Of a stretch of 64,000 nt of DNA, positions 1 to 62,944 are shown one piece after another. The notes beneath the pieces are model-generated. The model searched no databases. It saw only the letters and a program-made list of their open reading frames with translations, and was not told the DNA's origin. Position numbers and translations under genes: made by a program. The stretch covers positions 1-64,000 of the forward strand of contig NMRA01000935.1 of assembly GCA_002633005.1 (NCBI GenBank), written 5' to 3'. The DNA comes from Phoronis australis (lineage: Eukaryota; Animalia; Phoronida). Within the stretch, counting starts at the first letter, position 1. Each line of letters starts with the position of its first letter.

Positions 1-85
1 AGATTGCCTGGGACTATTGAAGGCTGCAATATTGAGAGGTCCGAACAGTTTAATTGTGTGACTGCCATTAACAATTGCCCAAAAG
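1..85 (+). CDS. Gene A, exon 2 equivalent (5' end at or beyond the window edge): RLPGTIEGCNIERSEQFNCVTAINNCPK
   Basis: Open frame ends in G|GTAAGT (phase 1). Homologous to exon 51969-52069 (GCNI...C.TAI.NCP), and the following intron is also similar. Confidence 0.85.
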
Positions 86-311
86 GTAAGTACAAATTTC
101 AACAATTTGCAGCATTCCAGCGTGTTTTTCATGAAATTTACAAAATTCCATGATCAATATTTGATCCTTGCACACTACTAATTGACAGTGTTATCTAATG
201 GAGTTTTTTCTACAAAGTAATCACACATTTACCTCAGTCAAAATAAATTTGAAGTGTTTGACCTGGAATGAAACAGTATAGAGACGTACTTTATTTTCAC
301 TAAATCAATAA

Positions 312-1658: not shown

Positions 1659-2565
1659 TTAATTTGATTGCAACCATACAGTTTTTGCATACAAACAGTA
1701 CTGCGACAATATTCCATCAACATCAGTTTTTCTCAAACACAGTCACAAGGTGGAGCAGGTTAGCCTGTTCTATGACCTTTAGTCATAGTTTGTGTTTCCA
1801 CACGGAAGAAAGATTAGTATCATATACAAATTAGCACAGACAATAATTGTAAATTGCCCTGTTTCTGTTCAAGTCTCTTGTGTATCATGCCATAGTCAAA
1901 GATTGGTTCCGTTGTAGATCAACAAAACACTGTAACATACAAACGATTCGAACTAGTAGCCGCATCCGGAAATCAATCCTTTTTTCTTGCAAAGACGGAA
2001 AACGCATTTTATGATTGTTCTAGTTTTTTTTTGCAGATTAAGCATGCTTCCCACATACTTTTGTAATGATTCGAAATGGAAATCAACGAAACTGGTAGGC
2101 GTGAATCTGTAGCTAAATATGCTCACTGTGTGTGCTTTTTGTCCCACTGTATCGGAGACTTACTTGTCTGTGCAAAATGCGTCGACTTAGATTAATTTGA
2201 AATTGGATTTGGTTATGGAAAGATATTATTCATTCTTACTCAGTCATTTTTAATACGCTACATAATCTAGCGAGCAGATGTATTTTACCGGAGAAAAAAC
2301 TGCTCACTCAATCCGTAGATACGCTTCAAAAAGAAAGTTTTAATGTTCTTACATTTATCCCAGTTCTTGAACTTTTTCATACTGAAGAGTCACTAAAACT
2401 GGAATCTCACTCACCGATAATATTTTTTCAAAGGCGTTCATCCCAGGAGTGAATTTAATCATTGATTGCTTTTACGGAATGCTTTCCAGATTTGACGTAA
2501 TAAAACAAGAGGTACATGTAAGCAGTAAATGTCAAAGTCAGTTTACCGCTTATTTTCTTGAATAG

Positions 2566-2709
2566 AATGTAAAGATAGCAGTGGTCGCATTCACAAGCAG
2601 AACGAAGAGTGGGAGGAGTTAAAGTTCGGGGTTCTACATGATTGTACGTGTAAAGTCCCAATCCCATGGATTCCTCATATGCCACCTACAGGAATGTGCA
2701 ATCCACGAG
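2566..2709 (+). CDS. Gene A, exon 3: FN1-like module 1 (ECKDSSGRIHKQNEEWEELKFGVLHDCTCKVPIPWIPHMPPTGMCNPRG)
   Basis: TTTTCTTGAATAG acceptor, AG|GTATAC donor, 144 nt, phase 1-1, no stops; paralogous to 60493-60669. Confidence 0.88.
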
Positions 2710-3700
2710 GTATACACTTTTAGTCATTTAATATACAACATATGAATGAACAGATAATTTCTCATTTCATTACCTAATGTGGAACGTTAGAGGGTTGCAA
2801 TAATTAGTCAATCATTAAACAGTAATGAGAACTTGGGTTATTTTTCAGAAACAGCGTCAAAGAACTTAATTATCATCATCTTGAGTTAACCTTTATATAC
2901 ATGTATGGCACGTACGAAAAAAGATAAGAACTTTCCAATAAGAACAAATTGGAAGAATCATTGTTATGAACGAATTTGAGTAAGAATAAGATACCGTAGT
3001 CACGTTTTATGCTTATCCGATTACCACTTAAAGAGACATGGAACGCGAAAACTCGTCAGAAATTTCTTTTAAACACTTCCTGGCGAACGGTACCATCGCG
3101 CAACGTCTAGTACAGAGTAATGTAATTCACTGACTCCTGTGAGGAAAGTTCCACAAAAATTCCCAAAATTCACGATTTTTGAAAGACTCGCGAAGGAAAA
3201 ACTCTGTGGTAACTTCAAAGTTTCTAATCTCCTCAAAGATGATAAATGTGCGCATGCACACACAGTCAGTAGATTGAGGCCAAAGGTCACATTTTCCATA
3301 TAAAGGAATTGTGCTACGTTCACGTCTTGCCATTCCACATAAGGAGACGTGCTTTACCTTGTAGGAGAAAAATGGACAAAGTGGCAAGTAGTTGACAGAT
3401 CGTTTTTTTTGAAATTTGAAACTAAAATCACATGCTTTGATATCAACAGAAATTAATCAACTTCACGAACAAACCCTAAAAATACCTGGTGTGCAGGTTG
3501 CATTCTGTTTCAGTGGAAGAGAAGTACTTTCAATATTGCAATTTAGTCTGTTCATGGCGTTCCTGGCCTCTCTAAGTAAACGCATACAGTATTATAAAAA
3601 TATTACTTTCTACCGATTTGGTTCGGAAAGCACACAACAGTCAGTGATCATTATGTAGGTTAAATTATCACTCGATTGATTATCATGTCTTTATCTTAAG

Positions 3701-3858
3701 GTTGCGCTGGTCCATGCAGTCGTCAAATGCGCTACGGGGAGCAGTATTACAAGGTACTTGATGGCAACAGATACGTGTGCGGGTGCTACGAAGGGCCATC
3801 TCCCAATTTAGAGAATGACTCTTCCCTTTCGCACATTTTGTGTGCTATTCTTCGTTAG
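3701..3858 (+). CDS. Gene A, last exon: FN1-like module 2 (GCAGPCSRQMRYGEQYYKVLDGNRYVCGCYEGPSPNLENDSSLSHILCAILR*)
   Basis: TCTTTATCTTAAG acceptor, phase 1, TAG at 3856-3858; paralogous to 61037-61179 including the first 40 nt of 3'UTR. Confidence 0.88.
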
Positions 3859-4900
3859 CAAACATTCAGAGTTTGCACATTGACTTGTAAAGAATGAAAA
3901 GATGTCAATACAAAAAGTGTGCTAACTATTGGTCTGGTGTCAAGTGTTTGAAAGATCAAGATAATAGTGAACAATGCCTCCCACCATCACTTTCAAAACA
4001 CCTTAAGTTCGAAAGTGTCATGCGTGTAAGTGCGACATTTCAAACGACAGGGGCATTCATATATGTTTTTGTTGCGTCTATTAAATTACAATTTCTAAAG
4101 TTGGTTCAATTATTATATATGTACTAGTTAATAAGTATTGGAACTGGCAACTGCTGTTTTGCTCAATTTAAGTAACCGTGTTGCATTTTGCGGTAGTCGT
4201 AAAAACGGTGCCGAATGTAAACAGTTGAATTCAAAGATAGCCATTTATGAAAGTGAACATGTTGTTCTAATTCAAATAAACATTCTCCAGTTTCATGAGA
4301 TTAACCAATTCCATTTTCTTTCTTGTTTTCCACGTACTCAGGCGGACGTGTTAAGACAGAGGATTTGCAGAGTAACATTCGTTATTACGTTTTGCTCCAC
4401 CAGAATCCACACGCTAATGACTCACCGATCTGCGCGCGCATCTCATGTAATCTCGAAGTGCAGTTAGCAGTGAGTTAACATCGTGTATTCCCAGTCGAGG
4501 CTAAGGATTGGATAGAGTAACAAAACGTCTCGACTGCACCACGGCAATGACAAAAGTAACTTCTAAATATGCGAGCAAAGGTAATGCTAAATTGATCCGA
4601 TGCAAGGCGCTCAACGCTTGCTAAATAAAAACATATAAATGTACGAAGTTGTACTAAATATTGAACACAAACGGTTACAAGCATGCTGCAAATTAGTCGG
4701 TAAACCAAAGATTAAACAAATTTGTGAAAACGTTTTGAATTAAATAAGGTCATGTACCTAACCTTATCTCAAAGGGGACGTCTTGAATTCAAAGAAGGAC
4801 GCGCCTCTTTCCTGCTCAGCATTTTACTATCAAGCTTTGTTTCACATAAAAATCACCGATACAGAAATGTAAATATATATCTTATTCATTGAGGCGTGGA

Positions 4901-5164
4901 ATATGTTGCAAGCAGTTTATCCAGTTCAATCCGACATCTTTTTGGTCACACCACGTGACCTAATGAATACAAGTCCGAAAAGATTTCTGACCACCTACCA
5001 GGACTCGAACAAAGAACCTTCTGCTCAGCGTGCAGAGGCTCAAGCCTCTGGACGATCGGGTTCCGGTCGGGGACAGAAATCTTTTCGGACTCCTGTTCAT
5101 TAGGCCACATGACGTGACCAACAAAAAATGGCGGATTGAACGGGATAAACTGCTTGCAAAATAT
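4901..5164. repeat. ~265 bp foldback (palindromic MITE-like element) with tRNA-3'-end-like inner arms
   Basis: TTGCAAGCAGTTTATCC...GTCCGAAAAGATTTCTG is the reverse complement of CAGAAATCTTTTCGGAC...GGATAAACTGCTTGCAA; arms ~110 bp. Confidence 0.85.
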
Positions 5165-7715: not shown

Positions 7716-8731
7716 TGACAACATATTACCCAACTGCTACTCTAGCCTAAAAATAGCAGCCTACCAGCTGGTCGGCTGATGGCCGGTCGGCTGAAGGGTC
7801 GGCTGGAGGGTCGGCTGGGGAGTCGCCTAATGAGTCGGCACTGCGGGCGGCTAATAGTAGCTTGACCGGCCGGCTATTATTACGTATTAGCCTCTGTTTG
7901 TTACGCGGGTTTTGGTGACTAGCGTTTCTCGTGTATAGCGGCATTCGTTGACAAGATCTGTAAGGCGAATCATGTGTTTTCATCGGATGCTGAAACTTTT
8001 ATATTGAGCAGACTGTTAGCCAAACTGTTGTAAGTACTGAGTATTATGGCATAGTATGTTTGTACTCGTGTGCATTTATAAGTTTAGAGCGTGTATACAT
8101 GTACATGTAGTTGTTTAAAGGATAGTATATTCGGCTGCTTGTTAATTTATTTACGCTTACTAGCCGAGTACTTAGACTGTGTTTTTTCTTCATTACAGAT
8201 AACCGCTTTATTGGACACTTCTTATCGGTAGCAACCAAATAATAAAGTGTGTTATGGAAACGGCTTTGTTTTGTTATCCCTGTAGCCAGACGCGGTTACA
8301 GTTATTACTCTAGCTTACATTCATTCATTTAGAACAATAATATTCATTGTTATTGATCAGATAGTTAAGAGATTTATATTGATATTTTTTCGACCCTAAA
8401 TGCACTAGGATGACCTGAAAGGGGTCAATTAGTGCATTTTTTCAAAATGCTTATTCTTCTACAGTTTTTTAGATAGACTCTTCGAATTTTGTTAACAAGT
8501 AGGGACTAAAGAAGTGCATCAGAAATTTACACGGATTTCCAATCGGACCAAGGGAACCGAGTTTCCGGGTCAAAGGTCATTAAGTGCAAAAGTGATTTTT
8601 GAGCTAGACCTTTCATAATCATGCATATTATTACCACTTCTTATCGGTAGCAACCAAATAATAAAGTGTGTTATGCAAACGGCTTTGTTTTGTTATCCCT
8701 GTAGCCAGACGCGGCCACATTAGTTATAACA
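7716..8731 (+). mobile_element. Probable 5' LTR of a BEL/Pao retrotransposon (start approximate; 3' part duplicated)
   Basis: AATAAA-containing segment ends TATAACA, followed by PBS-like TGGTGTCC and then gag; ~12 bp GGTCGGCTG tandem repeats at 7770-7840. Confidence 0.55.
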
Positions 8732-8763
8732 GTGGTGTCCTAGCACTATTGACAGTCGTGCTA

Positions 8764-11700
8764 ATGGAAGTTTCACCAACCGACCATGAGACCGTCTCAC
8801 ATTCTGACGAATTACCAGGTGAGGCGGAGTTGCGTGAGAGACAAGTTGTCGTTCCTGCGTATTGTGTGTATGGTGAGGACGCCCTTACATGTAGCTCTGT
8901 ATCCGCTCACACAGCAAACACTGCTTTGAGTGCTAGGTCGCAGTCTTCAGTTGTTAGCGTCGGGTTGAAGAAGGCCAAGTTGCTGGCGCGTAAACAAGCA
9001 TTGGAAGCGGAGATGCTGATCAAGGAACAGAAGGCAAAACTGGAGTCGCGGATCAAGCAGCAGCAGTTGGAGCGTGAAACAAGAGCGAAAATACGTGAGA
9101 TACGAGCCAGAGAACGCGAGGCTGAGGCGACAGCTTGTGAAGAAGGAGAATGTCTGATGTTTAGAGTCACAGGTTAAAGAAGAACAGTTGTCCTTAGAAA
9201 GACGTGCGAGAGCACTGCAGATAGACACGAAACTCGCAATAGCCGATGCACACGAGAGCATTTCCCATGGACAGGAGCCGACGTCTATTAGTTGGCCAGC
9301 GTCATCAGTGCCGATGGTGCGTGGACCATCCGTCATCGTCAGTACGCCAGTGACTTCAAAGCTGTTATCATGTAACCTGCCCGTGACGGTTAGTGCGTCA
9401 GCGACTTCAACGCCACCGGTTGACGAACCTACGCCGATCGCGTGGAAACAAGTGACGTCATCAGTGCCTTATTGTGGAACGTCGAAAGTTGCTGTCCAAT
9501 CAGTGGACAAAGCTACACATGTGGACGTTGTGCAACAGACTGTTAATGAGCAAGGGACTCAAAATAGTTTATCTCGTAATAGTTTGGTTCATAGTGATCC
9601 TACATTAGCAAATATTCAAGTATCTACTGATAATGCTCATGTTGTGTCTGGTTGTTGCTCTGTGCCTATTTTCAGTCTAACTGCAGGTGATAGTTCGGCC
9701 GTTCGGATTTCTGCTGCGAAGAATGACGTCAAGAGTACAGGGTAATACCTACATCTACAGAGGTCGATGCAGTTGCACTACCATTGAGTGTTTCATCTTC
9801 GCATGCTACCGTCACTCAGTTTGAGGGATGTGGTAAGCAGTACAGATATCCTGAGGTATGTCATAGAGAACTGTTAGATCCTACAGCTCGTTCCTTTACA
9901 CCGAACGACACTTCAACAAATACAGTTGTTGCAGCTTATCAAAACTTAGCCTGTTCGGTGTCGCTGCCGATTACTGAGGTTCCCAAGTTTGATGGAGATG
10001 TATTAATTTACTCGTCCTTCCTTATGGCGTTTGATGCTAGAGTGTCTGCGAAGGTATCTAACCGGTCAGACTTTACTATTTAGATCAACAGCTGGTTGGG
10101 GAACCGAAGGATTTGATTGGAGGATGCTTGTACATGGATCCTGCACGTGGTTATATGGAAGCACGGAAACTGTTGGACATGGAATACGGCGACCACTTCA
10201 AGATAGCGAATGCTTATGTGGACAAACTTTACAAGTGGTCCAGCATCAAGAGTGAAGATGCTTCTGCTTTGCGTCGGTATGCTCATTATCTAGATCGATG
10301 TCGGCATGCGATGATGAGTATTTCATCACTTAAATCATCCATCTAACCTTCAGACGGCTGTACGTAAGTTACCCTTGTACTTGCAAAATAAATGGAGGGA
10401 CAAAGCTGCATCTTATAGAAATGCAAGGTTTCGGGCATGCTTCACTGATTTAGTTGACTTTGTTTCACACGCTTCTCAGGCCGCAAGTGATCCAGTGTTT
10501 GGCAAAGATGCATTGTTTAGTTCGGGTGCTGCCTATTCCGATCAAACCCGCACCACTAAGAGTGCTAATTCCTTCTCTGCCGAGTTTGGCAGAAGTGGAG
10601 AGGTTGTCATGTCATGTTTATTTTGTAGCCGAGATCACGATATCAATAGCTGTTCCAACTTTATGGAAAAGACGTATGAAGAAAGAAGAGCCTTCATTGC
10701 AGCTGTGTTTCGGGTGTCTTCGAGGTAACCATTTGGTGAAGGGCTGTCCAAAAAAGAAAATTTGTGCCAGATATTCCCAGCCTCATCCGACATGTCTTCA
10801 CAACAATGGGTATACGTCACGTAAGAACCGAATTGATTCTGGAACTCAGACCGAGGGAGCTAATCAGCATTATTGTCTGGTAGTTGATGATGCAATTGCT
10901 TCTTGCGAGATTTTGCAATTCATACTTCCGGTTAGAATTTATCATGAATCATCAGATTCCTTTACTAACACTTACGCATTCTATGATCAGGGTAGCACTG
11001 CATGCTTTATTTCGGAGGCGCTGCTACAGCAGATTGATGTTGATTCCGTACCTGTTACGCTGCATCTTAATACCATGCATGGATCTACGTTTTTTGATTC
11101 TAGCGTCGTTTCAGGACTTGTAGTCAAGGACTTACAGGGGGCGAATGCCGTGCGTCTTCCCAAGACTTACTCTCGTCACGAAATACCTGTTCAGCATTGT
11201 CACATTCCCAGGCCAGAGGTTCTTCGCAAGTCTTGAGGCGTTAGCTGACTGTGTTGCAAATTTTGTGCCGCTTCTTGATATTGGGTTGTTGATTGGCAGC
11301 AATTGTCCGCTTGCATTGGAGTCTTTGGAGGTGTTTCCATCCTCAAGGAATGGACCGTTTGGCGTGATGCTACGGCATGGGTGGACTGTCAATGGCCCTG
11401 TGAACGTGGCCGGAGGTGAAGTACGCGAGACGTCGTGCCACACGGTGTGTGTTCAGGATGTTGCTGTCAGCAGGAGAATAGCTATGAACCAGAGTATTGA
11501 TGATAATCGCCAGGTGCTGGAACGAGATTTCTGTGATACAGAAAGTCATCACTTCGACGAGAAGGGTATGTGTGTGGAAGATCGTCGATTTATGAAGAAA
11601 TCTTTTGTGGCCTTGACACAGGGGCTTCTCTTACCACTGATAGTTGTTGAGCTGGCATCCCTCTTGGTTGTGTTATTCTTCTTGAGTGGTTATTCAATTC

Positions 11701-12295
11701 GTGTACCATTCCTGCTGTCAATTGGACCGAGGGAACATCCACTAGTTGATGCAAGGGAAGTACGCAAACTTACAGATGAGGCACTGGCTGTAACATTCAC
11801 CCGGTTTATTGTTGAGCCTTTTGAACACATTGTGGAGGCCATCAAGGAAATTAACCAGGAAGCGGTGAGTGATGTGCTTTTAAAGGACGGTATTCGTTGG
11901 CATTTCAACCCTCCGGCTGCAAGCCATATGGGCGGCGTCTGGGAACGGCAAATTCACTCAATTCGCAGGGTGCTGTCAGTATTGTTGAGAGATTTGGGTA
12001 GCCAGTGTAACGACGAGATACTGCGGACATTGTTTTGCGAAGTTGAAAGTATTATCAATTCGAGGCCTCTTACGACTGTCTCTTCTGATCCTATAGATTT
12101 ACAGCCACTCACCCCAAGCCATTTGCTCTCTCTGAAGACTTCGACTATTACGCCACCTGGTGTGTTCGAGACAGCGGACTTGTACAGTCGAAAACGATGG
12201 CGGAGAGTCCAGAAATTTAGCTGAGCAGTTCTGGGTTAGATGGCGCAAGGAGTACTTAGTGATGCTTCAGGCTCGTCAGAAATGGCATTACCCTA
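8764..12295 (+). mobile_element. Degenerate BEL/Pao gag-protease-integrase; RT/RNaseH missing, 3' LTR absent
   Basis: VPKFDGDV, LIGGCLYMDPARGYMEAR, three Cys/His knuckles, protease YAFYDQGSTACFISE, LLIGSNCPLALE, integrase WHFNPPAASHMGGVWER / IINSRPLT / LTPSHLL / FWVRWRKEYL; multiple stops and frameshifts. Confidence 0.93.
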
Positions 12296-15200
12296 GGTGC
12301 AACTTTGGGATCACTAAGTGCAGTTTTGTGTAAAATGTAAGACGTTTTAATCAGCTTGTACTTAATTGATGCATTAGGAAGAGCGTTCAAATTCATGGTG
12401 GTTCAACCAATTGACGATCAAATTCTAGTGATAATACGTGTAATGACCCAAAATGCTCTACAGGACCGCAAGAGGGTCGACCAGTATAATTCCTTGAAGT
12501 GCTTCTCCTTCTGCGATTTTTGAGATTGCCTTTTAAATTTCGTGAACAGCTTGGTGCCATATAACAGCACCTACAACTTACATGGAATTTCGATCTGATC
12601 AACTGAACCGAATTTCTGGGAAAAAGGTCAGTAAGTGCAAAAGAAATTTTTGAGCTAGACTTTACATAATCATGTATATCATTTTCATTCGCGAAGGAAA
12701 TCCATTCACAAATTTTAGGGTCATTAGGTGCAACTGTGGGGTCATTAAGTGCAGTTTTCACTTGATATTCTAACTTTTCACTCTTGCTCTTTCATAGTTA
12801 CCAGGGACATCTCTCTCTTTCACACAAAAGATGCAACTTCTATGCAATGTAATGCGCCTGTACTCCATTCTGCATGTGCGTACACCACGCGCAGAGTTGT
12901 AAGTGCGCATACGCATTCTAGTTATTTTTCTCATTCTTCTTATTCTTCCTTCCTTTTCAGATTGTTATTACTCTTATATCGATTCAGTTACAACAATCAT
13001 ATTCGCTGTGGTTGACATGCTTATCAAGGGATTTCTATTGATAATATAGTTTTGACCCAAAATGCACATTATTGACCCAAACCGGGTCAAGGAGTACATG
13101 TACATTCCGTTAAAATGCTTCTTCTTCTAAGGGTGTTTAGATAGACTCTTCGAACTTTGCTAACAAGTAGGCACCAGAGATCTGCATCCGAAATTTACTT
13201 GGAATACCAATCGGATCAATGGAACCGAGTTTCCGGGTCAAAGGTCATTTAGTGCAAAACTGATTTTTGAGCTAGACCTTTCATAACCTTTCATATGATT
13301 AACATTCAAAAAGGAAGTTCAGTCACAAACTTTGGGGTCACTAGGTGCAATTTGCAGGTCACTTAAGTGCAGTTTGCTGTTAAATTTAAAACTTTTTCAA
13401 TCAGCTTGTACTTAAATTATGCATTAAGGAGAGCATTGATATTCATGGTTGTTTAACCAATTGCCAACCAAATTTTATTCAACACATTCGTTTGACTCAA
13501 AGTGCACTGCAATGACCCGAAACAGGTCAAGGAGTGCATTCCGTTAAATTACTTCTTCTACAGGTTTTTAGATAGACTCCCCGAACTTTGACAACAATCA
13601 GGCACTAGGGAATTGCACCCGAAAATAACTTGGAATTTAAATTAGATCAAGGGAACCGAGTTTCCGGGTCAAAGGTCAATAAGAGCAAAAGTGATTTTTG
13701 AGCCAGACATTTCATAACCATGCATGTGATAACAATTGATAAAGGAAGTTCACTCAAAACTTTTGGGGTCACTAGGTGCAACTTAGGGGTCATTAAGTGC
13801 AGTTTTCTGTTAATTTTAAGACTTCAATCAGCTGGTACTTAAATGATAATTTAGGCAGAGCGATCATATTCATGGTGGTTCAAACAATTGCCATTCAAAT
13901 TTTCGGACAGGTTTTTTAAATAGACTACCCGTATTTGATAACAAGCGCGTACTAGATAAGTGCATCCGAAATTTACGTGGAATTTAAATAGGATCAAGGG
14001 AACCGAGTTTCTGGGTCAAAAGTCATTAAGTGTAAAAGTGATTTTCGAGCTAGACCTTACATAATCACGTATATAATTCGTAAAGAAAATTCAGTCACAA
14101 ACTTTGGGGTCATTAAGTGCAATTGTGTGGTCATTAGGTGCAATTTTCCGTCGTGGAGAACACTGTCTCTCTTTCAAACGAAGGATGCAATTTCTATGCA
14201 ATATAATGCCCCTTTACTTCACTATGCACATGCATACACCGCGCGCAGAGTTGTAGGTGCGCATACGCAATTGCGTTCTAGTTCTTATTCTTATTCCCCT
14301 TCCTTCCTTTTCAGATTGTTATTACTCTTACATAGATTCATTGACAACAGTCATATTCATTGTGATTGATACGATGATCAACGGATTTCTCTTGAGAATC
14401 TTGTTTTGAGCCAAAATGCACCGGAATGACCCAAAACGGTTCAAGAAGTACATTCCGCTGAAATGCTTCTTCTTCTACACGTTTTTATATATACTGTTCC
14501 AATTTTGGTAGCAAGTAGGCACCAGAGATCTGCGTCCGAAATTTACTTGGAATTCCATAAAGCAGACCGAGTTTCCAGGTCAAAGGTCATTAAGTGCAAA
14601 ATTGATTTTTGAACTAGACCTTTCATAATCTTGCCTGTGTTTGCCCTTCATAAAGGAAGTTTAGTCACAAACATTGGGGTCACTAGGTGCAACTTTGGGG
14701 TCATTAAGTGCAGTTTTCTGTTGATATTCTAACTTTTCACTCTCGCTCTTTCATAGTTAGCAGGGTCATGTATTTTTTCACACATTGGATGCAAATTCTA
14801 TGCAATGTAATGCCCCTATACTTCACTGTGCACCACGCGCAGCGTTGTAAGTGCGCATACGCGATTGCATTCTAGCTCTTCTTATTCTTCTTTTTGTCCC
14901 TTCCTTTTCGGATTATTATTGCTCTTACGTGTACATCGATTCGTTGACAACAATCATATTCATTGTGGTTGATAAGATGATCAAGGGATTTTTATTAATT
15001 ATAATGTTTTGACCCAAAATGCACCTGAATGACCAGAAATAAATCAAGAAATGCATTTCGTAAAGATGCTTTTTCTACGGGTTTTTCAGATAGACACTTC
15101 AAATTTTGTCAACAACTACGGCCTAAGAAACTGCTTCAGAAATTTACATGGACTTCCATTCGGACTAAGGGAACCGAGTTTCAGGGTCAAAGGTCATTAA

Positions 15201-17770
15201 GTGCAAAAGTGATGTTTGAGCTAGACCTTTCATAAGAACGCATATGTTTTCAGTGTTGAATGAAGTTTAACCACAAACTTTTGTGTCATTAGGTGCAACT
15301 TTGGGATCATTAAGTGCAATTTTGTGCCAAATTTTAGACTTTTTTAATTAGCTAGTACTTACATTTCGTCTTAGAGAGAACGTTCATTTTCATGGTAGTC
15401 CGACCATTTGCCAGTCAAATTCTACTGCTCATATGAGTATGACCCAAAATGCACCGAAATGAACCAAAATGGGCCAAGGAGTGCATTTCGTCAAAATACT
15501 TCTTCTACAGGATTTTAGACAGAATCTTTGAATTTTGTTAGCAAATATGTACTAAAGAAGTGCATCCTGAATTCACTTGGAATTCGAATTGGATCTAGGG
15601 AACGAGTTTCCAGGTCAATTGTCATTAAGTGCAAAAGTCATTTTTGAGCTACATGTTTCATTATTACGCATGTGACTTAGATTTATAAAGGAAGTTCAGA
15701 CAGAAACTCTGGGGTCATTAGGTGCAGTTTTCTGTTAAATTTCAGACATTTTCAATCAGCTCCTTCTTACATGAAGCATACGGGAGAGCGTTCACACCAG
15801 GGAATCTCTCTTTTTCACACCAACAACGCAAATTCTAAACTCCGTTACACGGCTATAACTTCCCATGCACGTGCGTACAACACGCGCAGAGTTGTAAGTG
15901 CGCATACGCAATTGCGTTCTAGTTCTTATTTTTATTCTTCTTATTCTTCCTTCTCCAAATTGTTATTAGTCTTACACCGATTTGTTGGCAACAATTATAT
16001 TCATTGTGAATGATACCACGACGAAGGGTTTTTTATCAATTATAATGTTTTGACCCAAAAGCACCCGAATGACCCGAAACGGGTCATAGAGTGCATTCCA
16101 TCAGCATGCTTCTTCTTCTACGAGTTTTTAGATAGACTCTTCAAAGTTTGTCAACAAGTACACCCTTAAAAACTGCATCTGAAATTTACTTGGAATTCCA
16201 ATCGGATAAAGGGAACTGAGTTTCCGGGTCAAAGGTCATTAAGTGCAAAAGTGATTTTTGAGCTACACCTTTGAAAATCACGCATGTGATTACTATTGAT
16301 AAAGGAAGTTCAGTCGCAAATTTTGAGGTCACTGGGTGCAACTTTTGGGTCATTAACTGCAGTTTTGTGTTAAATTTAAGACTTTTTCAATCAGTTTGTA
16401 CTTAAATGATGCATAACGGAGAACGTTCAAATTCATGGTGGTTCAACAAATTGGCGATCAAATTCTATTGATCTCATGGATTTGAGTCAAAATGCACCTG
16501 ACTAACCCGAAATGGGTCATGGAGTTCATTCCGTCAAATTGTTTCTCCTTCTACAGGTTTTTAGATAGACTCTACAAATTATATTAACAAGTAACCACTA
16601 GAAAACAAGGAGTGCATTCCATTAAATTGCTTCTTCTTGGACAGTATTTTAGATAGACTCTCCGAATTTTGATAACAAGCAGGCACTAGAGAAATGCATC
16701 CGAAATTTACGTGGAATTTAAATCGGATAAAAGGAACCGAGTTTCCGGGTCCAAGGTTATTAAGTGCAAAAGTGATTTTTGAGCTAGACCTTACATAATC
16801 ACGCATAAAGTTTTCATTCGTAAAGAAGATTCGGTCACAAACTTTGGGGTCATGATTTGCAACTGTGTGGTCATACGTCCAGTTTTCCGTTGACATTCTT
16901 ACTCTTTACTCTGCGCGTGCAAGCGTAGAGTACTGTTGTTCCTGTGTTACTCTTTCTCTTTCACTAAGGAAGTGCATCCGATATTTACTTGGATTTCCAA
17001 TCGGATAAAGGGAACTGAGTTTCCGGGACAAAGGTCATTCAGTGCAAAATTGATTTTTGAGCTAGACCTTTAAAAATCATGCATATGATTACCATTCATA
17101 AAGGAAGTACAGTCACACACTTTGAGGTCACTAGGTGCAAATTTGGGGTCGTTAAGTTTAGTTTTCTGTTAAATTTAAGACTTTATCAATCAGCTTGTAC
17201 TTAGTTAATAAATTAGGAAGAGCGCTCAAATTGGTGGTGGTTCAACCATTTGCCAATCAAAATCTATTGTTCACATGGGTTTGGTTCAAAATGCACCGGA
17301 TTGACCTGAAATGGGTCAGAGAGTGCATTCTGTCAAATTTCATCTCCTTCTACAGGTTTTTATATAGACTCTTCAAATTTTATTAACAAGTAGGCACTAG
17401 AGATCTGCATCCGTAATTTCCTTGGGAACCGAGTTTTCTGATCAAAGGTCATTAAGTGCAAAAGTGACTTTTGAGCTAGACCTTACATAATCACGTACAT
17501 ACTCTTCAAACGTAAAGGAAATTCAGTCACAAACTTTGGGGACATTAGGTGCAGCAGTGGGGACATTAGGTGCAACAGTGGGGTCATTAGTTGCAAGTTT
17601 TCGTTGATTTTCTTACTTTGGATTCTTGCTCTGTCATAGTTACCAGGGACATCTTTCTCTTTCTCACAAAGGATGCAACTTCTATGCAATGTAATGCTCC
17701 TATACTTCAATGTGCACGTGCATACACCATGCGCAGAGTTGTAAGTGTGCATACTCAATTGCATTATAAT

Positions 17771-18600: not shown

Positions 18601-21600
18601 GTTTATTCTTCTTATTCTTATTCTTCTTATTCTTCTTATTCTTATTCTTCTTCCGACCAACTTTGAGGCTTAATAACTCCAAAATGGGTGCAGGTATGGT
18701 CTTTAAACAGTACACACCATGGATTTTTGCACATTTTGAATTACCGGTGGCCACAGACTAAATGTATGACGTAAAATTTAGGTAAACCCATGTTTATTTT
18801 GTGTAATTAGCTCAAAATTTTGATTTTTCTTTCAATTTTGCCAATTTTCACATTTCCCGCCATGTGACGTCATGGGTTGAACACAAGAGATCAGTGACTA
18901 TCATTGAACAATGGCGGAGACCAGGGAATTTGAAAGTGACGACGATTATGAGCAAGAATTGAACGAATACTATGAAGAAACGTATGGAAATGGTGGCCAG
19001 GATGAGGAAATGGGGTTGCACGAAANTTTTAAAGAATTCCTTTTCTGAAAATTAGACCTTTTCAATCAGCAAGTATTCTGATGTGTCAACTGTTAGACAA
19101 CTGTGATTCTCATCGTTAAACACATTTTCCATGGGCTTTGCAATAATTCTCCTAAAGATGCTTAAAATGCACCGGATAAGGTCAATTAGTGCAAAGGTCA
19201 TGTAACATTCAAAATGTTATATGTCTTACGTTCTTCAAGGAATTCTTTTCAATTTCAGCACACTAGTGTAAGTCAACATGCCAATTGAATACCCTTCTTT
19301 ACTTCGCATTAGGCCTAACCAACCAGAAAAAAATAGGTCAAAGGTAATTGAGAGCAAACTAAAATTTTGAGCTAGAGACTTCATAATTACATAATTATCT
19401 ATTTACTAAGTGCGATTGAGTTTGAATTCTAAATTTTCGGGTCATTTGGTGCACCCATGGGGTCATTAGATGCATTTTTCTTCTGAAAGTTTGACCACTT
19501 CATTCATCTTGTATTCTGAAGTGCTTAAAGTAAAACATCTGTGACTATTAGCATTAACCACACTTTTAATCTAGTTAACAATTACTCCCTCATCGGGGCC
19601 CATAATGCACCGGAAGAGGTCAATTATTGGAAAGATCATCAAAAAATTAGTATGTAATTTCTCCTACAATTTTAAAGAATTCCTTTTCATATTGGTAAAC
19701 GGGTTGCTGTCAGTAACTTCCCATAATAATTCCAGTAATACGCACGCGCAGAGTCCGTTATTGTCACGCCGTGACAATAATCTTTCTAGTTCGTATTCGT
19801 ACTCTTCTTATTCTTCTTCCGACCAAATTTGAGGCTTAATAACTCCAAATTGGGTGCAGGTACGGTCTTTAAATTCAGCATATGACATTTGACGGTATAT
19901 AAATTTTGATTGGTTAGATAATCATATTCCATATTGCACCGGAAGAGGTCGTTTGGTGCAAAGGTCATATAATTTTCAAAATGCTACTCCTCCTTCAGTT
20001 TTAAAGCTATCTTTTTCAAATTTGGTGCACTGGTATAAGTCAGCATGACAATTTAAAAAATTACTTTTCTAAGTAATCGGTTATCCAATCAGGTGAAACA
20101 GGTCAAAGGTAATTAGGTGCAAACTAAAAGATTGAGCTAGACACTTCAAATTGACAGGTCTGATTGCCACAGGTAAATCAAATCGGAATCCAAAGTTTCA
20201 GGTCATTTATTGCAAACATGGGGTCATTAGGTGCATTTTTCTTCTGAAAATTTGACCTTTTCAATCAGCAAGTATTCTGATGTGTCGACCTTTAGACAAT
20301 TGTGATTCTCAGCATTAAACACATTTTCCATGGGCTTTGCAATAATTTTCCTCAAGATGCTTAAAATGCATGGGATGAAGTCAATTAGTGCAAAGGTCAT
20401 GTAACGTTCAAGGAATTCTTTTCAATTTCAGCACACTAGTGTAAGTCAACATGCCAATTGAACAACCTACTTAACTACGCATCAGGCCTAACCAATCAGA
20501 AAAAATAGGTCAAAGGTAATTGAGTGCAAAATTAATATTTTGAGCTAGAGACTTCAAAATTATATATCTGTTTACTAAACGCGATTGAGTTTGAATTTTA
20601 AATTTTTGGGTCATTTGGTGCACCCATGGGGTCACTAGGTGCATTTTTCTTTTGAAAGTTTGACCAATTCATTCATGTTGTATTCTTAACTGCTTAAAGT
20701 CAAACATCTGTGATTCTTAGAATTAATCAAACTTTAAATTGGTTTTACAATTATTCCCTCATCGGGTTTCATAATGCACCGGAAGAGGTCAGTTAGTGGA
20801 AAGGTCATCAAAATATTAACATGTAATTTCTCGTACAATTTTAAAGAATTTCTTTTCATATTGGTAAACGAGTTGCTGTCAGTAACTTCCCAAAACAATT
20901 CCAGTAATACGCACCCGCAGAGTCCGTTATTGTCACGCCGTGACAATAATCTTTCGAGTTCTTCTTATTCTTCTTCCGACCAACTTCGAGGCTTAATAAC
21001 TCCAAAATGGGTGCAGGTATGTTCTTTAAATTCTGCCTGTGATTTTTGGCTGTATATACATTTTGATTCGTGTATAGAATCATATTCCATATCGCACCGG
21101 AGGATGTCGTTTGGTGCAAATTGTCAAAATGCTACTCCTCCTTCAGTTTTAAAGCTATCTTTTTCAAATTCGGTGCACAGGTATAAGTCAACAAGACAAT
21201 TTAAAAACTTACTTTTCTAAGTAATCGTATCATCCAATCAAGTAAAAAAGGTCAAAGATCATTACGTGAAAATTAAATTATGAGCTAGACACTTCAAATT
21301 CACAAGCTTGATTGGCACGTCTAATTAAATTCGAAACACAAATTTTCAGGTCATTCAGTGCAACCATAGGCTCATTAGGTGCAGTTTTCTTCAGAAAAAT
21401 TGTCATTTTCATTCACCAAGTGTTCCGATGTGTCAACCGTTAGACAACTGTTATTCTCAGCATTCAACACACTTTTCATGGGCTTTGCAATAATTCTCCT
21501 TAAGACGCTTATAATGCACCGCATATGGTCAATTAGTGCAAAGGTTATCTAACGTTAAAACTGTTATATCTCTTACATTTTTCAAGGAAATCTTTTCAAT

Positions 21601-23736
21601 TTCAGCACACGGGTGTAAGTCAACATGCCAATTGAACACCCTACTTTACTAAGCAATATGCCTATCCAATCAGAAAAAATAGGTCGGACATTGAGTGGAA
21701 ACTAAAATTTTGAGCTTGAGACTTCAAAATTACATGACTATTTAGTGAATGCAATAGAGTTTCAATTCTAAAGCTTCGGGTCATTTGGTGCATCCAACGG
21801 GTCATTAGGTGCATTTTATTTTGAAAGTTTGACCAATTTAATTATCTTGTATTCTGAAGTGCTTAAAGTAAAATATCTGTGATTCTTAGCATTAGCCACA
21901 CTTTTAATCGAGTTAACAATTATTCCCTCATCGGGGGCTCATTATGCACCGGACGAGGTCATTTAGTAGAAATATCAAAATATTAACATGTAATTTTTCC
22001 TATAACTTTAAAGAATTCCTTTTTATATTTGTAAACGGGTTGCTGTCAGTAACTTCCCATAACAATTCCAGTAATACGCACGCGCAGAGTCCATTATTGT
22101 CACGCCGTGACAATAATCTTTCTAGTTCATCTTATTGTTCTTCCAAACAACTTGGAGGCTTAATAACTCCAAATTCGTTGCAGGCACGTTCTTTAAATTC
22201 AGCATATGATATTTGACAAGACATAAAGTTTGATTCGTTTTATAATCATATTCCATATTGCACCGGAAGAGGTCGTTTGGTGCAAAGGTCATATACTTTT
22301 CAAAATGCTACTCTTTCTTCAGGTATAAAGCTATCTTTTTCAAATTCGGTGCACAGGTATAAGTCCACAAGACAAATTAAAAAACTACTTTTCTAAGTAA
22401 TCGAATCATCCAATCAGATAAAACAGGTCAAAGGTCATTAGGTGCTAACTAAAATTTTGAGCTAGACACTTCAAATATACAAGGCTAATTGGTACATCTA
22501 ATTCATATCGAAATACAAAGGTACCGGTCATTTAGTGCAACCATGGTATCATTATGTGTATTTTTCTTCTGAAAATTTGTCCTCTTCATTCACCAAGTAT
22601 TCTGATGTGTCAACCGTTAGACAAATGTGATTCTCGGCATTAAATATACTTTTCACCTAATTTGAAATAGTTCTACTAAGATTGCTTGTAATGCACTGGA
22701 TAGGGTCAATTAGTGAAAAGGTCATCTACTTTTGAATATTACTTTTCCTACATTTTTCAAGGAATTCTCTTCAATTCCAGCTCATTGGTGCAAACCTACA
22801 TGCCAAAGAGCTTACCCTTCTTTACTAACCAATAGGGCCATCCAATCAAAGAAATAGGTCAAAGGTCATTGAGTGCAAACCAAAATTTTGAGCTAGACAT
22901 TTCAAATTCAAAAGTCTGATTGGTACGTCTAATTCAATTCGAGATACAAAGTTTCATGTTATTTAGTGCAACCATGAGGTCATTAGGTGCATTTTTCTTC
23001 TGAAATTGTGTCCTTTTAATTCACCAAGCTTTCTGATTTGTCAACCGTTAGACAACTGTGGTCCTCAGCATTAAACACACTTTTCACGCGCTTTGCAATT
23101 ATTCTCTTAAAGACGCATATAATGCACAGGATAGGGTAACTTAGTTCAAAGTTCATCTAACGTTCAAAATGTTATGTCTCATAAATTTTTCAAGGAATTC
23201 TTTTCAAGTTCAGCGCACTGGTGTAAATCAACATGCCAATCGAACGCTCTACATTACTACGCAATAGACCTCACCAGTCAAAAAAGGTCATTGAGTGCAA
23301 ACTAAAATTTTGAGCTAGAGACTTCAAAAGAGCATACATGTATCTGTTGAGTAAATGCGATTGAGTTTGAATACTAAATTATCAGGTCATTTGGTGCACC
23401 CATGGAGTCATTAGGTGCATTTTTCTTTTGAAAGTTTGACCAATTCATTCATGCTGTATTCTGAAGTGCTTAAAGTAAAACATTTGGGATTCTTAGCATG
23501 AACCACACTTTTAGTCGAGTTTACAATTATTCCCTCACCGGGGCTCATAATGCACCGAAAGAGGTCAGTTAGTGTAAAGTTCATCAAAATATTAACATGT
23601 AATTTCTCCTACAATTTTAAAGAATTTCTTTTCATATTGGTAAACGGGTTGTTGTCAGTAACTTCCCATAACAATTCCAGAAATAAGCACCCGCAGAGTC
23701 CATTATTGTCACGCCGTGACAATAATCTTTCTAGTT
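18601..23736 (+). mobile_element. Tandem array of Helentron/HINE-like elements, subfamily B (~1.17 kb unit)
   Basis: Each unit ends ACGCAC(G/C)CGCAGAGTCC + perfect hairpin TTATTGTCAC-GCC-GTGACAATAA + TCTTTC(T/G)AG, at 19786, 20955, 22122, 23731 (periods 1169, 1167, 1609). Confidence 0.75.
18708..19025 (+). mobile_element. Unrelated insertion in the array with an acidic ORF start (MAETREFESDDDYEQELNEYYEE...), cut at an N
   Basis: Array homology breaks abruptly after CTTTAAA; ATG at 18911; ambiguous base at 19026, where the array resumes. Probably the left end of a DNA transposon. Confidence 0.45.
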
Positions 23737-23794
23737 TACTTTTATTATTAACAGTTACAGCCCGCTGAACGTCAGGTCCAGCCCCAACATATTC

Positions 23795-30532: not shown

Positions 30533-30648
30533 ATGATGTGGTCCTCTGCTGTCCTAACTTTCATTGCGCTGTCCGTCTCCTTATCACTGCCGCACATGCA
30601 AGGTCTGGGGCAGCGTGAGATCGTGAGCCCACGTTTGGCGAGATCTAG
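30533..30648 (+). CDS. Gene B, exon 1: signal peptide + short propeptide (MMWSSAVLTFIALSVSLSLPHMQGLGQREIVSPRLARS)
   Basis: Hydrophobic N-terminus, R-x-x-R site, AG|GTAAGA phase-2 donor matching the phase-2 acceptor at 51969. Linkage across the 21.3 kb intron is inferred. Confidence 0.75.
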
Positions 30649-36339: not shown

Positions 36340-37550
36340 ATTAAGCACAACTTACATGTAAACTAAGGAGGTGCACCAACCGAGTTGATCAGGCTCGGTC
36401 CAGGACTGTATGGCTCATCTCGTCTCCTACAACTTCACTAATGCAGCATCAGGAGCCTGCCCACTTCACCTACTCTTCTTGCACCACTGTTCATTCCTCT
36501 TCTTCCATATCCACTGTGACGCCCTCTCCGCTCGCTCGCTTATAACACCGATAGCCTTCATCCTTTCCTTTCCTGTCACCCCTGATGCACGAAATGCCCT
36601 CCATACTGGCTGCCCAACAAATCCCCTGCATCCAACTCCAACTGGCCAGTACCATACTCTCCACCCCCTACTTCGACATTTTTCGCACAACTGTTGATAT
36701 TTCTCTTTCTTCCTTGCATGTGCTTCATCTACCCGCTCTCCCCATGACACTGTCAGCTCCAGCAATATTACCTGCTTCGTTGCCTGTGACCACATCACGA
36801 TGTCTGGCCTTAGACTTGTCTCCGCTATCTCACTTGGGAAGGTCATCCTTCGGTACAGATTGAAGTTCATTTTCAAGATGTTTGCCGTGTTCAGTACACC
36901 TGCTCCTCCTGTATGTCCCCGAGTTGAAGTACCTGTCAGCAAAAATTAACAAACTGAGGTTCTTTCAGCACTTTTCGTTCCTTCTTGTGTTCCCTCCTGC
37001 TCTCCGCGACCACCTCCAGCACCGGGTCATGCCTTCAAGTATATCGCCCGTCTGATAACGCTGATGAGCATGATGACAGCACGTGTTCCAGGTTTGCTGG
37101 CTTCTTGCACAATGCACAAGTCGTATCTTCCACTAACCCCCACGCGCGAAAATTGGTTGGGCTGGGGAAAACATTATACACAGACCTCAGCAAAAACCTT
37201 AATCTGCTCTCCTGCATTGTCCAGATCTCTTGCCACTTCAAAGCCCTCTGTCTAACTCCATGAAAATTCAGCCAACTGCCTTACTGCCCTCATGCCTGCT
37301 GCTCTGGCTCTTCTTGTTTCTTCTTCCATGCTTCTCACTTGCTGCTGTACCATGCTACGTCTCTCCTTAGGACTCTCTTCTCCCCAACGTGCCTGTGGAA
37401 ACAAACCAAGTCCTTGTCTGCCCACTGCAACTGTGCCTACTATATCATCGTGCTTGAGTCTTTCTTCTGCCTACTTGACTGCTTGTTTGCACTCGACCCT
37501 GACTCTGGCTCCTCGCACTTTCTCATCCACACTGTCCCTCAGAGTTAACA
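36340..37550 (-). mobile_element. HERO-type non-LTR retrotransposon 3' fragment (restriction-like endonuclease)
   Basis: LRFLLRSVYNVFPSPTN, CALCKKPANLEHVLSSC knuckle, LRPDIVMWS...ILLELTV..KKEKY, PVGVGCRGFVG. Confidence 0.9.
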
Positions 37551-46575: not shown

Positions 46576-46609
46576 TTCTTTCATTTTTAGCAAATATTTT
46601 AAATACTTA

Positions 46610-48055: not shown

Positions 48056-49483
48056 AGGAGAATGCCACCCGAATTAATTTGGTCTATATCCACATCACCT
48101 CCTACGCAGTCGATCTCACCTCGCCGAAAGGTGTCGCGTTAACCTGCGAAGAAGGTGAGTACGCGAAGCAGTGGTTCTTCAGTGAGTGTGTGCCGCTATT
48201 GTGTGGCGTCCCGTTCCCGCTTGTGCGAATCACGAACCTGCGCGGAAAGCGGGTATATCGTTTTTTTTTTTTCGATTTCCTCGAGAACACGAAAAGCTTA
48301 GGAGGTGGTTCCCGGCAGTAAAGAACGAAAAGTACGACGTAATACCAAAAAGTGTGATGCCTTCAAGTACATGTATCTCCGTGTCTGTGGGCGGCAAAGC
48401 GGTTCTGATTCAAAATGAATTATTTTCACCCTAATCAATATTTATATAAAACTGAAACAATATGTCAAAGTCTGTCTCAGTAGATACAGTTTGTAATGCC
48501 TTAAAAGTGTTCGTGAGTGCAGATGTTTTGAGAAATCAACAATGAATAAATCATACTGCGTTACCGGCTTCAGTTGTAATAAAATTAATTGACCGCCGTG
48601 TGAGCGCATGCTAATTCAGTGTTTGCTGACAGAAATCTGTTGTAAAACTAAAACTCGTTTTTATGTGCTATGGTCGATGTTATATTATTCAAATCATTTT
48701 TGTTGTGCACCTTTTCTCTGTACGGTTCTATGGAAGGGGAACCTAGCTTCGCGATACCCGACGAGTAAGTAGATTTGCAACTTCGCGGCGAATTCGCCGA
48801 AATACTCACGTGCACATTATTTCTTTGGTTCGCTAGTCTAGTCCTTTCGTAACTGGAATTTAGTTTTCAACTTTGGCAGCTATCTAATCCGGCTGGTTTA
48901 TGTTCGCAATGTCTCCAGTCCGGCCGCGACGGACCAGATCGTGTTCCAAGCTACTGGGTTATAACGAGCGTTTTGTGTTTAGAACATGAAATTCGCAAGT
49001 CAAAAGTTACAACACACGGCTATGCTTTTCTCAGTGTCTCTATTTCACGGAGGAATGATTCTAGTTTATCACCGAACAGACTCCATACTTCCCGCGACAG
49101 ACCACGTTAAGTTGACGTTAAGTTGGTCTACCCCGGCGAACTTTGAAAGCTACATGTACGGTACGTTCAAAATTTCTATACATCTGTAGTAGCGAAATAA
49201 AACGATTCATTTGTTTAAAAATGAATGTATGTGTGAGGGTTTCAAATCGAATTGTGATGGTTTATTTTTGTAAAACGATGAATTCAAGCGATGAGCTGAC
49301 ACCAGTGAGCGTCTCGTGAACTGCTGAGCAGACTGTGTTAGAACTTGTGACGTCATTCGTTAAATTTAACACCTCCGTCTGTCGTCTGGTGTCAGCTAAA
49401 AGAACTGAACTTGCTGTCATCGAGTGTAACTACTCGATCTAAATTCGGATGCAAAGTACGTTGTTTTTTGGTGACAATCTCCT
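48056..49483. mobile_element. Kolobok-like non-autonomous DNA transposon (family K), copy 2, complete
   Basis: TTAA|AGGAGAATGCCACC ... GGTGACAATCTCCT|TTAC: 14 bp imperfect TIRs with a TTAA-type TSD. Confidence 0.82.
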
Positions 49484-51968: not shown

Positions 51969-52069
51969 TTGTCTACCATTAAGGGACGGGGATCTTTACT
52001 GGTTTACAGGCTGCAATATCACGAAGTCGTCGTCTACTTGTATCACTGCTATTGAAAATTGCCCAACAA
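51969..52069 (+). CDS. Gene B, exon 2: 4-Cys module (SCLPLRDGDLYWFTGCNITKSSSTCITAIENCPT)
   Basis: TTTCTTTCAG acceptor (phase 2), AA|GTAAGT donor (phase 1); paralogous to 1-85. Confidence 0.88.
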
Positions 52070-60492: not shown

Positions 60493-60669
60493 CATGTACA
60501 GATACAAATGGTCAGACTCACCAACGGAACGACACGTGGGAGGAGACAAGGGACAACGTGGCTACGTTTGACTGTGAGTGTACCAATGAAGTAACGTGGA
60601 TCTATCCCTACCACTTGCCGTTGAGTTTGCGCAACAAAATTCCACCGTTTCCAACCTGCTATCGAAGAG
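60493..60669 (+). CDS. Gene B, exon 3: FN1-like module 1 (TCTDTNGQTHQRNDTWEETRDNVATFDCECTNEVTWIYPYHLPLSLRNKIPPFPTCYRRG)
   Basis: TCTTCTTTTGTTCCGTAG acceptor, AG|GTATGC donor, 177 nt, phase 1-1, no stops; paralogous to 2566-2709. Confidence 0.9.
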
Positions 60670-61036: not shown

Positions 61037-61179
61037 GTTGTCTTCGTTACGACGACGTTCACATGGAGTACGGCGACTGGTTTTTATTCGGCGGAGAGAA
61101 CTGCACTTGCGTCAACGAACCAGATCCCCTCTATGAGGATTACGAATTCCATTCGCACGTGAAATGTGAGCCTGTGTAG
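61037..61179 (+). CDS. Gene B, last exon: FN1-like module 2 (GCLRYDDVHMEYGDWFLFGGENCTCVNEPDPLYEDYEFHSHVKCEPV*)
   Basis: CCTTTGTTTTAAG acceptor, phase 1, TAG at 61177-61179; paralogous to 3701-3858. Confidence 0.9.
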
Positions 61180-62944
61180 CAAACATTCCGAGTTTTCACA
61201 TTTACTTGTAAAGAATGAAGTGGAAACATACATGTAGACGTTGATGTGGAGATTTGTTGACATTTTATATACTCAGAAACTCTGGAATTCGATTCGACGT
61301 CAATAGAATTGTGCCACGTTAGAATAGAGTTACCTTGAAATTATCCACATTCCTTAAAGCTGCTATCAATTCGCCCTCCGCTAGAAAAAGTAATTTCTTA
61401 TTTAGACAGCTTTTAAACGTTATGAAATTGGTCTGAAATTGTTCTCCAGTCAAAATAGGTGTGATTGCTTGAAACTACATGTAGGCGCTACAAGTTGACT
61501 TAACGCGGCGTGTCACTTGATGCGCCTAAATTGTTCAGTCGAGTGACGAGTTGTTGATTCTTTGCAAGACCAAAAATCGCATCCCACTTGAGTAAGGAAC
61601 CATTGAGGCAATTTTATAGCGGTGAGTAGTCTAAATCAGCATCTAACTTCTTCGGTACCGCTTTAACACATGTCGTCATAACAAAATGAAATTCAATCAA
61701 GAATGGTCACTACTGTTTCCGTCATTTCTTTAAGCGGCAATAATCCCGCGTTCCGTCGAAGAAATTATCATTTTTATTTAATCCTCTTACAGCTGTGAAA
61801 TTGATCCCAACTTGTTACTTACACATATAAAAAGGGACACTTTGTGTCACGTTTTCCCACTTGGATTGGGTTGGTGCAGGTTGTTTCCGTCCAGTGCTAA
61901 TAGCTTTCGGTACGACGATAGACTAAAGACTGGTTCAAGCTTATCAATTAAGAGTGACCCCGTATAAAAACCAACAACCAGAGTCTTTACTCAAAATCAC
62001 AGATATTTTGAGACATAGCACATGAGTTAGGCTCGATGGGATGTAGACAAATTTCGCTTGTTAGGAATTTTCATCCATTATTTCTTTTTTTATCACCTGT
62101 ACATGTACCTCCATTTTGCAACAAAATTGGGCCCCGAAGTAGACATATTTGAATGCATTTTACTAGCATGTATAGTAAGCTGATAACAAATGAGTGAGAC
62201 AGTTTGAAAGAACAATAATTAAATAGTTTAATTGCACGACTTTCAAATTGTATGTTTTGATTATGTGTGGCAAAAACGACTACCTTGAAGGTTTTCACTG
62301 GAGCCATTTTCGGCCAACTTTGTAGCAGCCATATTGCACCTTTCCAAAAACTGACAGTTGCCTCAACTACCAATAGGTGGCTCTTATAATAATTTGTTCA
62401 CTCATTCCTACTCTGTCCATAGTCTAAATTAGACCATCTTTGCTTTCCCGTAGTTTTTGCTTACGAAGCATTACATGAAGCGCACGTGGTCCTATCTGCC
62501 TTTTCTCAGTTCCCTCAATCACCAATAGGGGGCTTTTGGAACATGTAATTAGCTTGTAAAAACACGACCCTCTGTTTACTGTAAAAAAATCGTCAACACG
62601 GTCAAAACTCATTGTAATTATGCGTTCTTATTGTTCCAAATTTTGTCTTTAAGCACATGATACCCTCGATAAGTCTTTACAAATAACAATTCTTACAAGG
62701 TATTGATTTCTAATTAAAAACTCTAAAGAGTGTTTAGATTAACCTGTGAATGGAAGAAAATAAGAGAGTTACAAGGTTTTTATAAATCCTCAAACCTAAT
62801 GTCAACTGACTCACTGAGCAAAGGTCATCGGGTTCAGTTTTAAAACTGACCGAGCAATACATGCAGAACTCAACTTGTTTTCATTTGAGAGAGCTTAGAC
62901 TTGATTTTTACATCAATTTTTATCAAATTTTCGTTGAAATGGTC

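Follow-up and report, generated by a model that had tools for sequence, protein, structure and literature searches.

A transcribed family of small cysteine-rich, fibronectin type I-like genes in Phoronis australis, probably under diversifying selection

Layout of the two genes and their surroundings

The window (the whole 64,000-nt stretch of Phoronis australis DNA analysed here) is repeat-rich animal DNA with a GC content of 39%, and its + strand carries two paralogous genes, A and B. The 5' end of gene A lies upstream of the window, which enters one of its exons mid-way at position 1. A sequence-only reading had singled out the acceptor flank of the last intron of gene A together with the last exon and the start of the 3' UTR, and had claimed that the non-coding flanks are more conserved between the paralogues than the exons. 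The features on which the argument depends are the following.

1..85, + strand: 3' part of the gene A module-1 exon, homologous to 52008-52069, with a GT donor in the sequence (phase 1)
86..205, + strand: donor-side flank of gene A intron I, 77/107 identical to gene B (z 9.6), including a 26/32 block
1702..1770, + strand: deep block in gene A intron I, 53/69 identical to gene B 52385-52456
2566..2709, + strand: gene A module-2 exon, cysteine pattern C..CxC..C, fibronectin type I (FN1)-like; phase 1-1, boundaries predicted
3566..3700, + strand: acceptor-side flank of gene A intron II, 79/111 identical to gene B; many genomic copies carry the same flank
3701..3858, + strand: last coding exon of gene A (module 3, five Cys, stop TAG), 83/138 nt identical to gene B
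3859..3898, + strand: gene A copy of the 40-nt 3' UTR block, 37/40 identical to gene B and common to all members seen
3899..4120, + strand: 3' UTR of gene A beyond the block, ~84% identical to paralogue C and unalignable with gene B
30533..30648, + strand: putative first coding exon of gene B, with a phase-2 donor and a frame compatible with the acceptor at 51969
51969..52069, + strand: gene B module-1 exon, 4 Cys, without family match
60493..60669, + strand: gene B module-2 exon, FN1-like (Pfam fn1 E 0.0037; model pLDDT 69.5)
61037..61179, + strand: last coding exon of gene B (module 3, FN1/VWC-like), with splice reads (model pLDDT 82.8)
61180..61219, + strand: gene B copy of the 40-nt 3' UTR block

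Joined, the exons of gene B leave a reading frame open over 180 residues, with introns in phases 2, 1 and 1. The putative first exon, which has a TATA-like box ~60 nt upstream, would encode a hydrophobic, signal-like N-terminus followed by a short pro-region with a terminal RxxR, furin-like site; it would be joined to 51969 across ~21 kb. Exons 2-4 hold four cysteines apiece, one module per exon, for a total of 12 without a CC pair. In both genes the stop codon directly follows module 3, an arrangement that UTR reads confirm. The last exon of gene A is the most diverged part of the gene. Its module 3 has an extra fifth cysteine near the start, and it has altered the HSH-x-KC end that is retained in paralogues B, C and D (the latter two introduced below), so that A is the derived one at that site. 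The deep block in gene A intron I (alignment score 65, the best of 30 shuffles reaching 26) sits past the insertion of a ~1.3-kb dispersed repeat.

That repeat occurs at 305-1650, 48081-49490 and 53578-54798. Two of the copies lie in intron I of A and of B, in opposite orientation and at non-matching places, and are likely to be independent insertions; the third lies upstream. Much of the space between A and B is occupied by two degenerate tandem arrays (12290-17770 and 19040-23740), their repeat units measuring about 500 and 400-1150 nt. They follow a degenerate LTR-retrotransposon-like element with broken frames at 8700-12290, which we take from its motifs to be BEL/Pao-like; ahead of it lies a direct repeat of 80 nt whose two copies are nearly perfect (8216-8295 / 8635-8714). 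The - strand carries a broken LINE at 44000-46600, whose reverse-transcriptase frame is 62% identical to its best match (one match bears the label of a bacterial symbiont MAG, which is probably contaminated with host DNA), and, within the long first intron of gene B, a second retroelement-like frame of 159 residues (36466-36945). A self-complementary, MITE-like element of 264 nt (77%) occupies 4901-5164. No further paralogue exons were found within the 64-kb window.

Transcription, further members and predicted fold

Expression was followed in three RNA runs with the same species label (X5, X6 and X7), about 18-19% of each being sampled, and paralogues were recognised only through alignments of reads or contigs to the window. 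The last intron of gene B is spliced 60669>61037 with GT-AG ends in 4 RNA reads on the + strand. The last exon of gene A is transcribed on the + strand in X5, where 54 of 980 aligned reads match at >=99%; no RNA reads fall in its intron at 3545-3684. Reads over the 40-nt UTR block number 463 in X5, 345 in X6 and 4 in X7 at similar sampled depth, an expression difference of ~100-fold between samples, and most of them derive from a third member, paralogue C. A fourth coding end, D, occurs in a contig of run X8. The DNA run X1 is not independent of the window, for which it may have been the source; in it, variant bases in the flanks are carried by 7-9 contigs (8-9 on the acceptor-side flank of gene A intron II), some of which may be alleles. 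In the same run, contig depths add up to 340-810 over the intron flank, climb to as much as about 1000 where the exon starts, drop to 138.5, from two contigs, at 3785-3844 inside exon 3, and stand at about 590 over the UTR block; one 238-nt contig covers the last exon of gene A with 23 differences. The family has at least four genes, and probably more. Each of the four coding ends seen (A, B, C and D) keeps its frame and its cysteines intact.

Two further observations concern the assembly. Gene B (60330-61900) lies in a single unbranched 1813-nt contig at depth 43, and the pieces of gene A have depths of 96-133; gene B may be hemizygous, or gene A may exist in near-identical copies. At window positions 3628 and 3660, both intronic, all aligned X1 contigs show a different base, which is an allele or an assembly error.

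Paralogue C extends the comparison beyond the A-B pair and provides the most telling independent sign of the pattern. Its 3' UTR is ~84% identical to that of gene A over ~260 nt, with 5 differences in the 40-nt block. Across 151 nt of X1 record 7 there are 24 differences and a single gap, and alignment resumes from about 4012 to 4120. The ~350-570 reads of paralogue C end at the stop codon, and none matches the last exon of A at the 80% threshold. Over the last ten codons, counted by hand on a consensus of loose read ends and defined as the 30 nt where alignment fails, C and A differ in 12 nucleotides and in 6 of the ten residues, the four unchanged codons being identical; this coding end is more diverged than the C UTR (Fisher p 0.006). 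At ~260 nt the shared A-C tract is no short motif, though it may owe something to conversion. Across several paralogues, non-coding DNA is more alike than the mature coding DNA.

Module 2 of gene A matches the Pfam fn1 family (PF00039) at E 1.6e-4 and 22.2 bits, and module 2 of gene B at 17.8 bits, both below the gathering cut-off of 27; modules 1 and 3 have no Pfam fn1 match, and module 1 matches no family. The C..CxC..C spacing is invariant in the four modules aligned (4/4), and a profile built from these four retrieves fibronectin chains as 6 of 6 PDB matches (best E 5.6e-7). For the model of B module 2, FN1 modules fill the top 12 rows both of Foldseek (E 0.2-1.0) and of VIA (Z 3.4-5.0, rmsd 1.3-1.4 over 41 residues), with VWC and MSMB following. 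The best Foldseek row for B module 3 is the C-terminal domains of MUC2 (E 0.64), and FN1 appears too, among many unrelated rows. All of these are weak matches of small domains modelled as single modules (Foldseek E > 0.001, Z at most 5). Sequence and fold matches, each weak, agree on a likeness to FN1, and modules 2 and 3 are predicted to adopt its small two-sheet beta fold, in which the disulfides join cysteines 1-3 and 2-4.

Resemblance to the FN1 modules of fibronectin, tPA, factor XII and HGFA extends to the C..CxC..C spacing, to a G-x-x-aromatic/His motif and a Trp in the first two strands, to the predicted small beta-sheet fold, and to the encoding of one module per exon. The modules of A and B differ in falling below the Pfam cut-off and in a long insertion before the last cysteine; their proteins stand alone at ~140 residues without FN2, FN3, EGF, kringle or protease domains, and belong to a multi-copy, fast-evolving family. 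VWC and mucin domains come next: VWF C4, CCN3 and collagen VWC score Z 2.3-3.2 against B module 2 in VIA, but the A/B modules have four cysteines each and lack the second VWC subdomain. Argos and the 2FTX proteins, a rival three-domain scaffold, are likewise secreted and often built of three small disulfide-held beta domains, but with intron phases 0,1,0 or 0,2,0 (PMC12514838) against 2,1,1 in gene B. They are absent among the Foldseek and VIA rows listed for the singly folded modules, and the searches point to FN1 instead. Two other homologue searches, each confined to longer proteins and to shared 5-mers, gave 5 and 54 candidates, none of which scored. Four matches from another homologue search were rejected as repetitive singleton frames or as a FAST-repeat protein with unrelated families. 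Every query in these searches was a single exon of 46-58 residues, with which remote relatives may be missed. In the open literature searched no paper describing the A/B family was found.

Coding and non-coding divergence between A and B

The contrast between flanks and exons is real, though smaller and more local than had been claimed. Over 109 Cys-anchored codons the coding sequences of A and B are identical at 190 of 327 nt (58%), and the three alignable intron flanks at 197 of 276 (71%, a figure biased upward by gapped alignment and by the selection of alignable blocks), with Fisher p 0.0009. The original contrast had been drawn from the two best blocks and had set nucleotide identity against amino-acid identity (43/109 in all, 33-46% per exon), which is not a like-for-like measure. 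Its counts are another matter: 37 of 40 nt after the stop (3859-3898 vs 61180-61219) is exact, and 26 of 32 at the start of an intron is right by hand count, but the latter block is at 86-117 vs 52070-52101 in intron I, outside the stretch to which it had been assigned. Acceptor-side alignment was confirmed for the last intron (z 8.8 for the 79/111 flank, splice core removed, 200 local shuffles).

Four of seven non-coding stretches are conserved above chance by this measure: the donor side of intron I, the acceptor side of intron II, the donor flank of intron II (41/58, z 3.5, splice core removed) and UTR positions 1-40 (z 12.0). The other three are at chance: intron I 121-300 (z 1.0), the acceptor side of intron I (z 2.0) and UTR 41-160 (z -1.7). 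Not all of the coding sequence lags behind: exon 1 near its end (43/59) and exon 2 near its start (44/66) show roughly the same conservation as the intron flanks. Most of the shortfall comes from exon 3 and from the latter half of exon 2, where A and B are also unequal in length. The intron distance is about 0.36, and the similarity of the intron flanks may mostly be regarded as ordinary homology that has decayed by some 0.35-0.45 substitutions per site.

Among the A-B flanks, special conservation looks confined to the 40-nt UTR block. Judged by the introns it should have about 11 differences, and it has 3 (p 0.001). It is therefore probably no neutral clock; it is likely to be either a motif under constraint of its own or a tract of gene conversion. 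The sequence-only reading had named short motifs or gene conversion as the way in which its evidence might fail, and for this block, though not for the flanks at large, that caution was warranted. A structured RNA element in the UTR was considered and rejected: an Rfam scan of 3500-4300 returned no family, and the UTRs show no unusual folding (z -1.0 and 0.75).

Selection was assessed with pairwise codon models, implemented in our own likelihood code and applied to one full pair (A vs B, 109 codons) on an alignment set by hand on the cysteines, whose misalignment would inflate dN/dS and lies outside the bootstrap. Under M0 the whole-gene dN/dS is 1.12 with dS 0.58; for exon 3 alone the ratio is 1.6. 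M2a improves on M1a by an LRT of 10.2-11.9 under three frequency models (p 0.003-0.006) and places about 60-65% of sites at dN/dS 3.7-5.3 with dS about 0.45. At the LRT of 10.2 (p 0.006) the class holds 62-65% of sites at about 3.7; when 400 data sets were simulated under the fitted neutral model, 1 reached that LRT. Multi-nucleotide mutations are reportedly a known source of false positives in such tests (10.1101/165969), and with a term for them p becomes 0.047 on the full alignment. For the 76 best-anchored codons p is 0.08, and 0.18 with the multi-nucleotide term; for exon 3 alone it goes from 0.048 to 0.30; subsets overall range over 0.05-0.30. NG86 counting gives dN 0.54-0.65, dS 0.68-0.77 and a ratio of 0.74-0.91, with bootstrap intervals that span 1. 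Identity by codon position is 65, 58 and 67 of 109. The earlier suggestion of diversifying selection is partly supported, by the full-alignment site test and by a dN/dS of ~1 despite 11 fixed cysteines, but significance is lost on the 76 codons; a dN/dS well below 1 with saturated dS, the outcome that had been named as adverse to it, was looked for and is not what the genes display.

Synonymous change can also be set beside the introns. Of the unchanged degenerate codons 30/40 are identical (10/11 for cysteine), so that synonymous sites are not saturated, and this identity fits that of the introns (p 0.71), as the M2a dS of ~0.45 lies near the intron distance of 0.36 and is consistent with it. 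Agreement is incomplete: four-fold sites differ at 7/18, above the intron expectation, and third-position identity falls below intron identity (p 0.07). The neutral model requires dS 0.96 (0.72 with multiple hits). Flanks simulated at dS 0.96 have an identity of 0.60 and a score of -23, as against observed scores of 61 and 50: they would be unalignable, unlike the flanks observed. With moderate confidence, then, diversifying selection appears to be the best reading of the sequence comparison.

Competing readings and a possible role

What we judge probable, with reservations, is that A and B belong to a transcribed, multi-copy family of small, cysteine-rich, likely secreted FN1-like proteins whose non-cysteine positions have been diversified by selection after duplication; the family itself is real and apparently undescribed. 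The mechanism proposed is as follows. Gene B would encode a 180-residue precursor with a signal, a short pro-peptide and three disulfide-held modules, one per exon; export and cleavage at RxxR would yield a three-module protein with six disulfides. Duplication would have produced the tandem family, in which the cysteines and a few core Gly, Trp and Tyr residues would be kept constant while roughly 60% of positions evolve at 3-4 times the silent rate. Change would be favoured on exposed strands and loops, including length shifts before the last cysteine of each module, with selection favouring new binding surfaces.

The chief rival, which we hold to be unlikely though a serious contender, is relaxed constraint: neutral drift outside the cysteines at a divergence of about 0.7-1.0, with flanks that are regulatory or homogenised by gene conversion. 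An M0 dN/dS of about 1 and the NG86 estimates of dS are what it would predict, the excess conservation of the 40-nt block suits it, and so does the abrupt end of A-B conservation after 40 nt of UTR and ~120 nt of intron I; on the 76-codon core set with multi-nucleotide mutations, M1a stands. It demands, however, four separate constrained or converted tracts, one of them deep in an intron, in addition to the ~260-nt UTR tract that A and paralogue C have in common, and it sits badly with degenerate codons as alike as the introns and with the retention of frame and cysteines in all four coding ends seen.

If selection has indeed diversified the family, the question becomes for what, and here defence or recognition ranks first by inference, with toxin and reproductive functions next. 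A reasonable guess, held at somewhat less than even likelihood among the functional options, is a binder that acts outside the cell in host defence or recognition. FN1 pairs bind extended peptides by strand addition; the fold matches include PDB entries titled as FN1 pairs with staphylococcal and collagen peptides bound, and such binding of bacterial and matrix peptides suggests that the partners here may be variable proteins, whether foreign or conspecific. Such a binder would grip its protein along the exposed beta-strands and loops, each paralogue having a separate target. More speculatively, and probably too boldly, invertebrate stand-alone FN1-like fingers might form a germline repertoire of hypervariable secreted binders, serving in immune recognition, as decoys against microbial adhesins, or as a toxin scaffold.

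A set of toxins or deterrents secreted by a gland, conotoxin-like, would evolve in the same manner for another job, and is in our estimation rather improbable. Conserved non-coding flanks are a property of conotoxin-type families, which share with A and B the pre-pro-mature layout and a fixed cysteine frame with retained codons and variable loops. A putative signal and pro-region, a basic cleavage site and a fixed cysteine frame can be read from the sequence, expression is strongly restricted by sample, and cysteine codons are retained much as described for conotoxins (PMC3823881). The A/B product is larger, however, and three-module, no sequence or fold link to conotoxins was found, no toxin is among the PDB sequence matches or the fold rows listed, and expression is modest, at hundreds of reads in ~12 million records. 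A secretion that serves reproduction or gamete recognition would have its parallel in the beta-microseminoproteins, which are duplicated and fast-evolving and have a related beta-sheet fold; to this reading we give a similarly slim chance. MSMB3 is at VIA rank 14 (Z 3.1) for B module 2 and human MSMB at Foldseek rank 39, the ~100-fold difference between samples would suit such a role, and published work describes duplicated MSMB genes as fast-evolving in marmosets (PMC2746217) and MSMB/PSP94/SSP proteins as small, secreted, disulfide-rich and encoded in a tandem array among transposons with accelerated coding evolution (PMC6609765). The cysteine pattern is unlike: MSMB has ten conserved cysteines with an adjacent pair (PMC8167871), as against the 12 of gene B in three four-cysteine modules. 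Gene B falls outside the MSMB family by its cysteines and by lacking the two-domain architecture, and single exons gave no match to the PSP94 Pfam family.

Exons that outrun their introns are a well-known pattern, one that marks genes in molecular arms races; it is the family and its scaffold that are apparently undescribed, and the family is probably under diversifying selection. The scaffold is unusual in consisting of tandem FN1-like modules without another domain and in having no homologue in the libraries searched. One review calls FN1 chordate-specific (PMC3308698), and the carriers given in passages of two other papers are chordates only (PMC6337849, PMC5006582). If the host is truly a non-chordate, the family would bear on the origin of FN1 in relation to VWC and MSMB; and if its targets should prove to be microbial or neuronal, it would constitute a new natural small binding scaffold.
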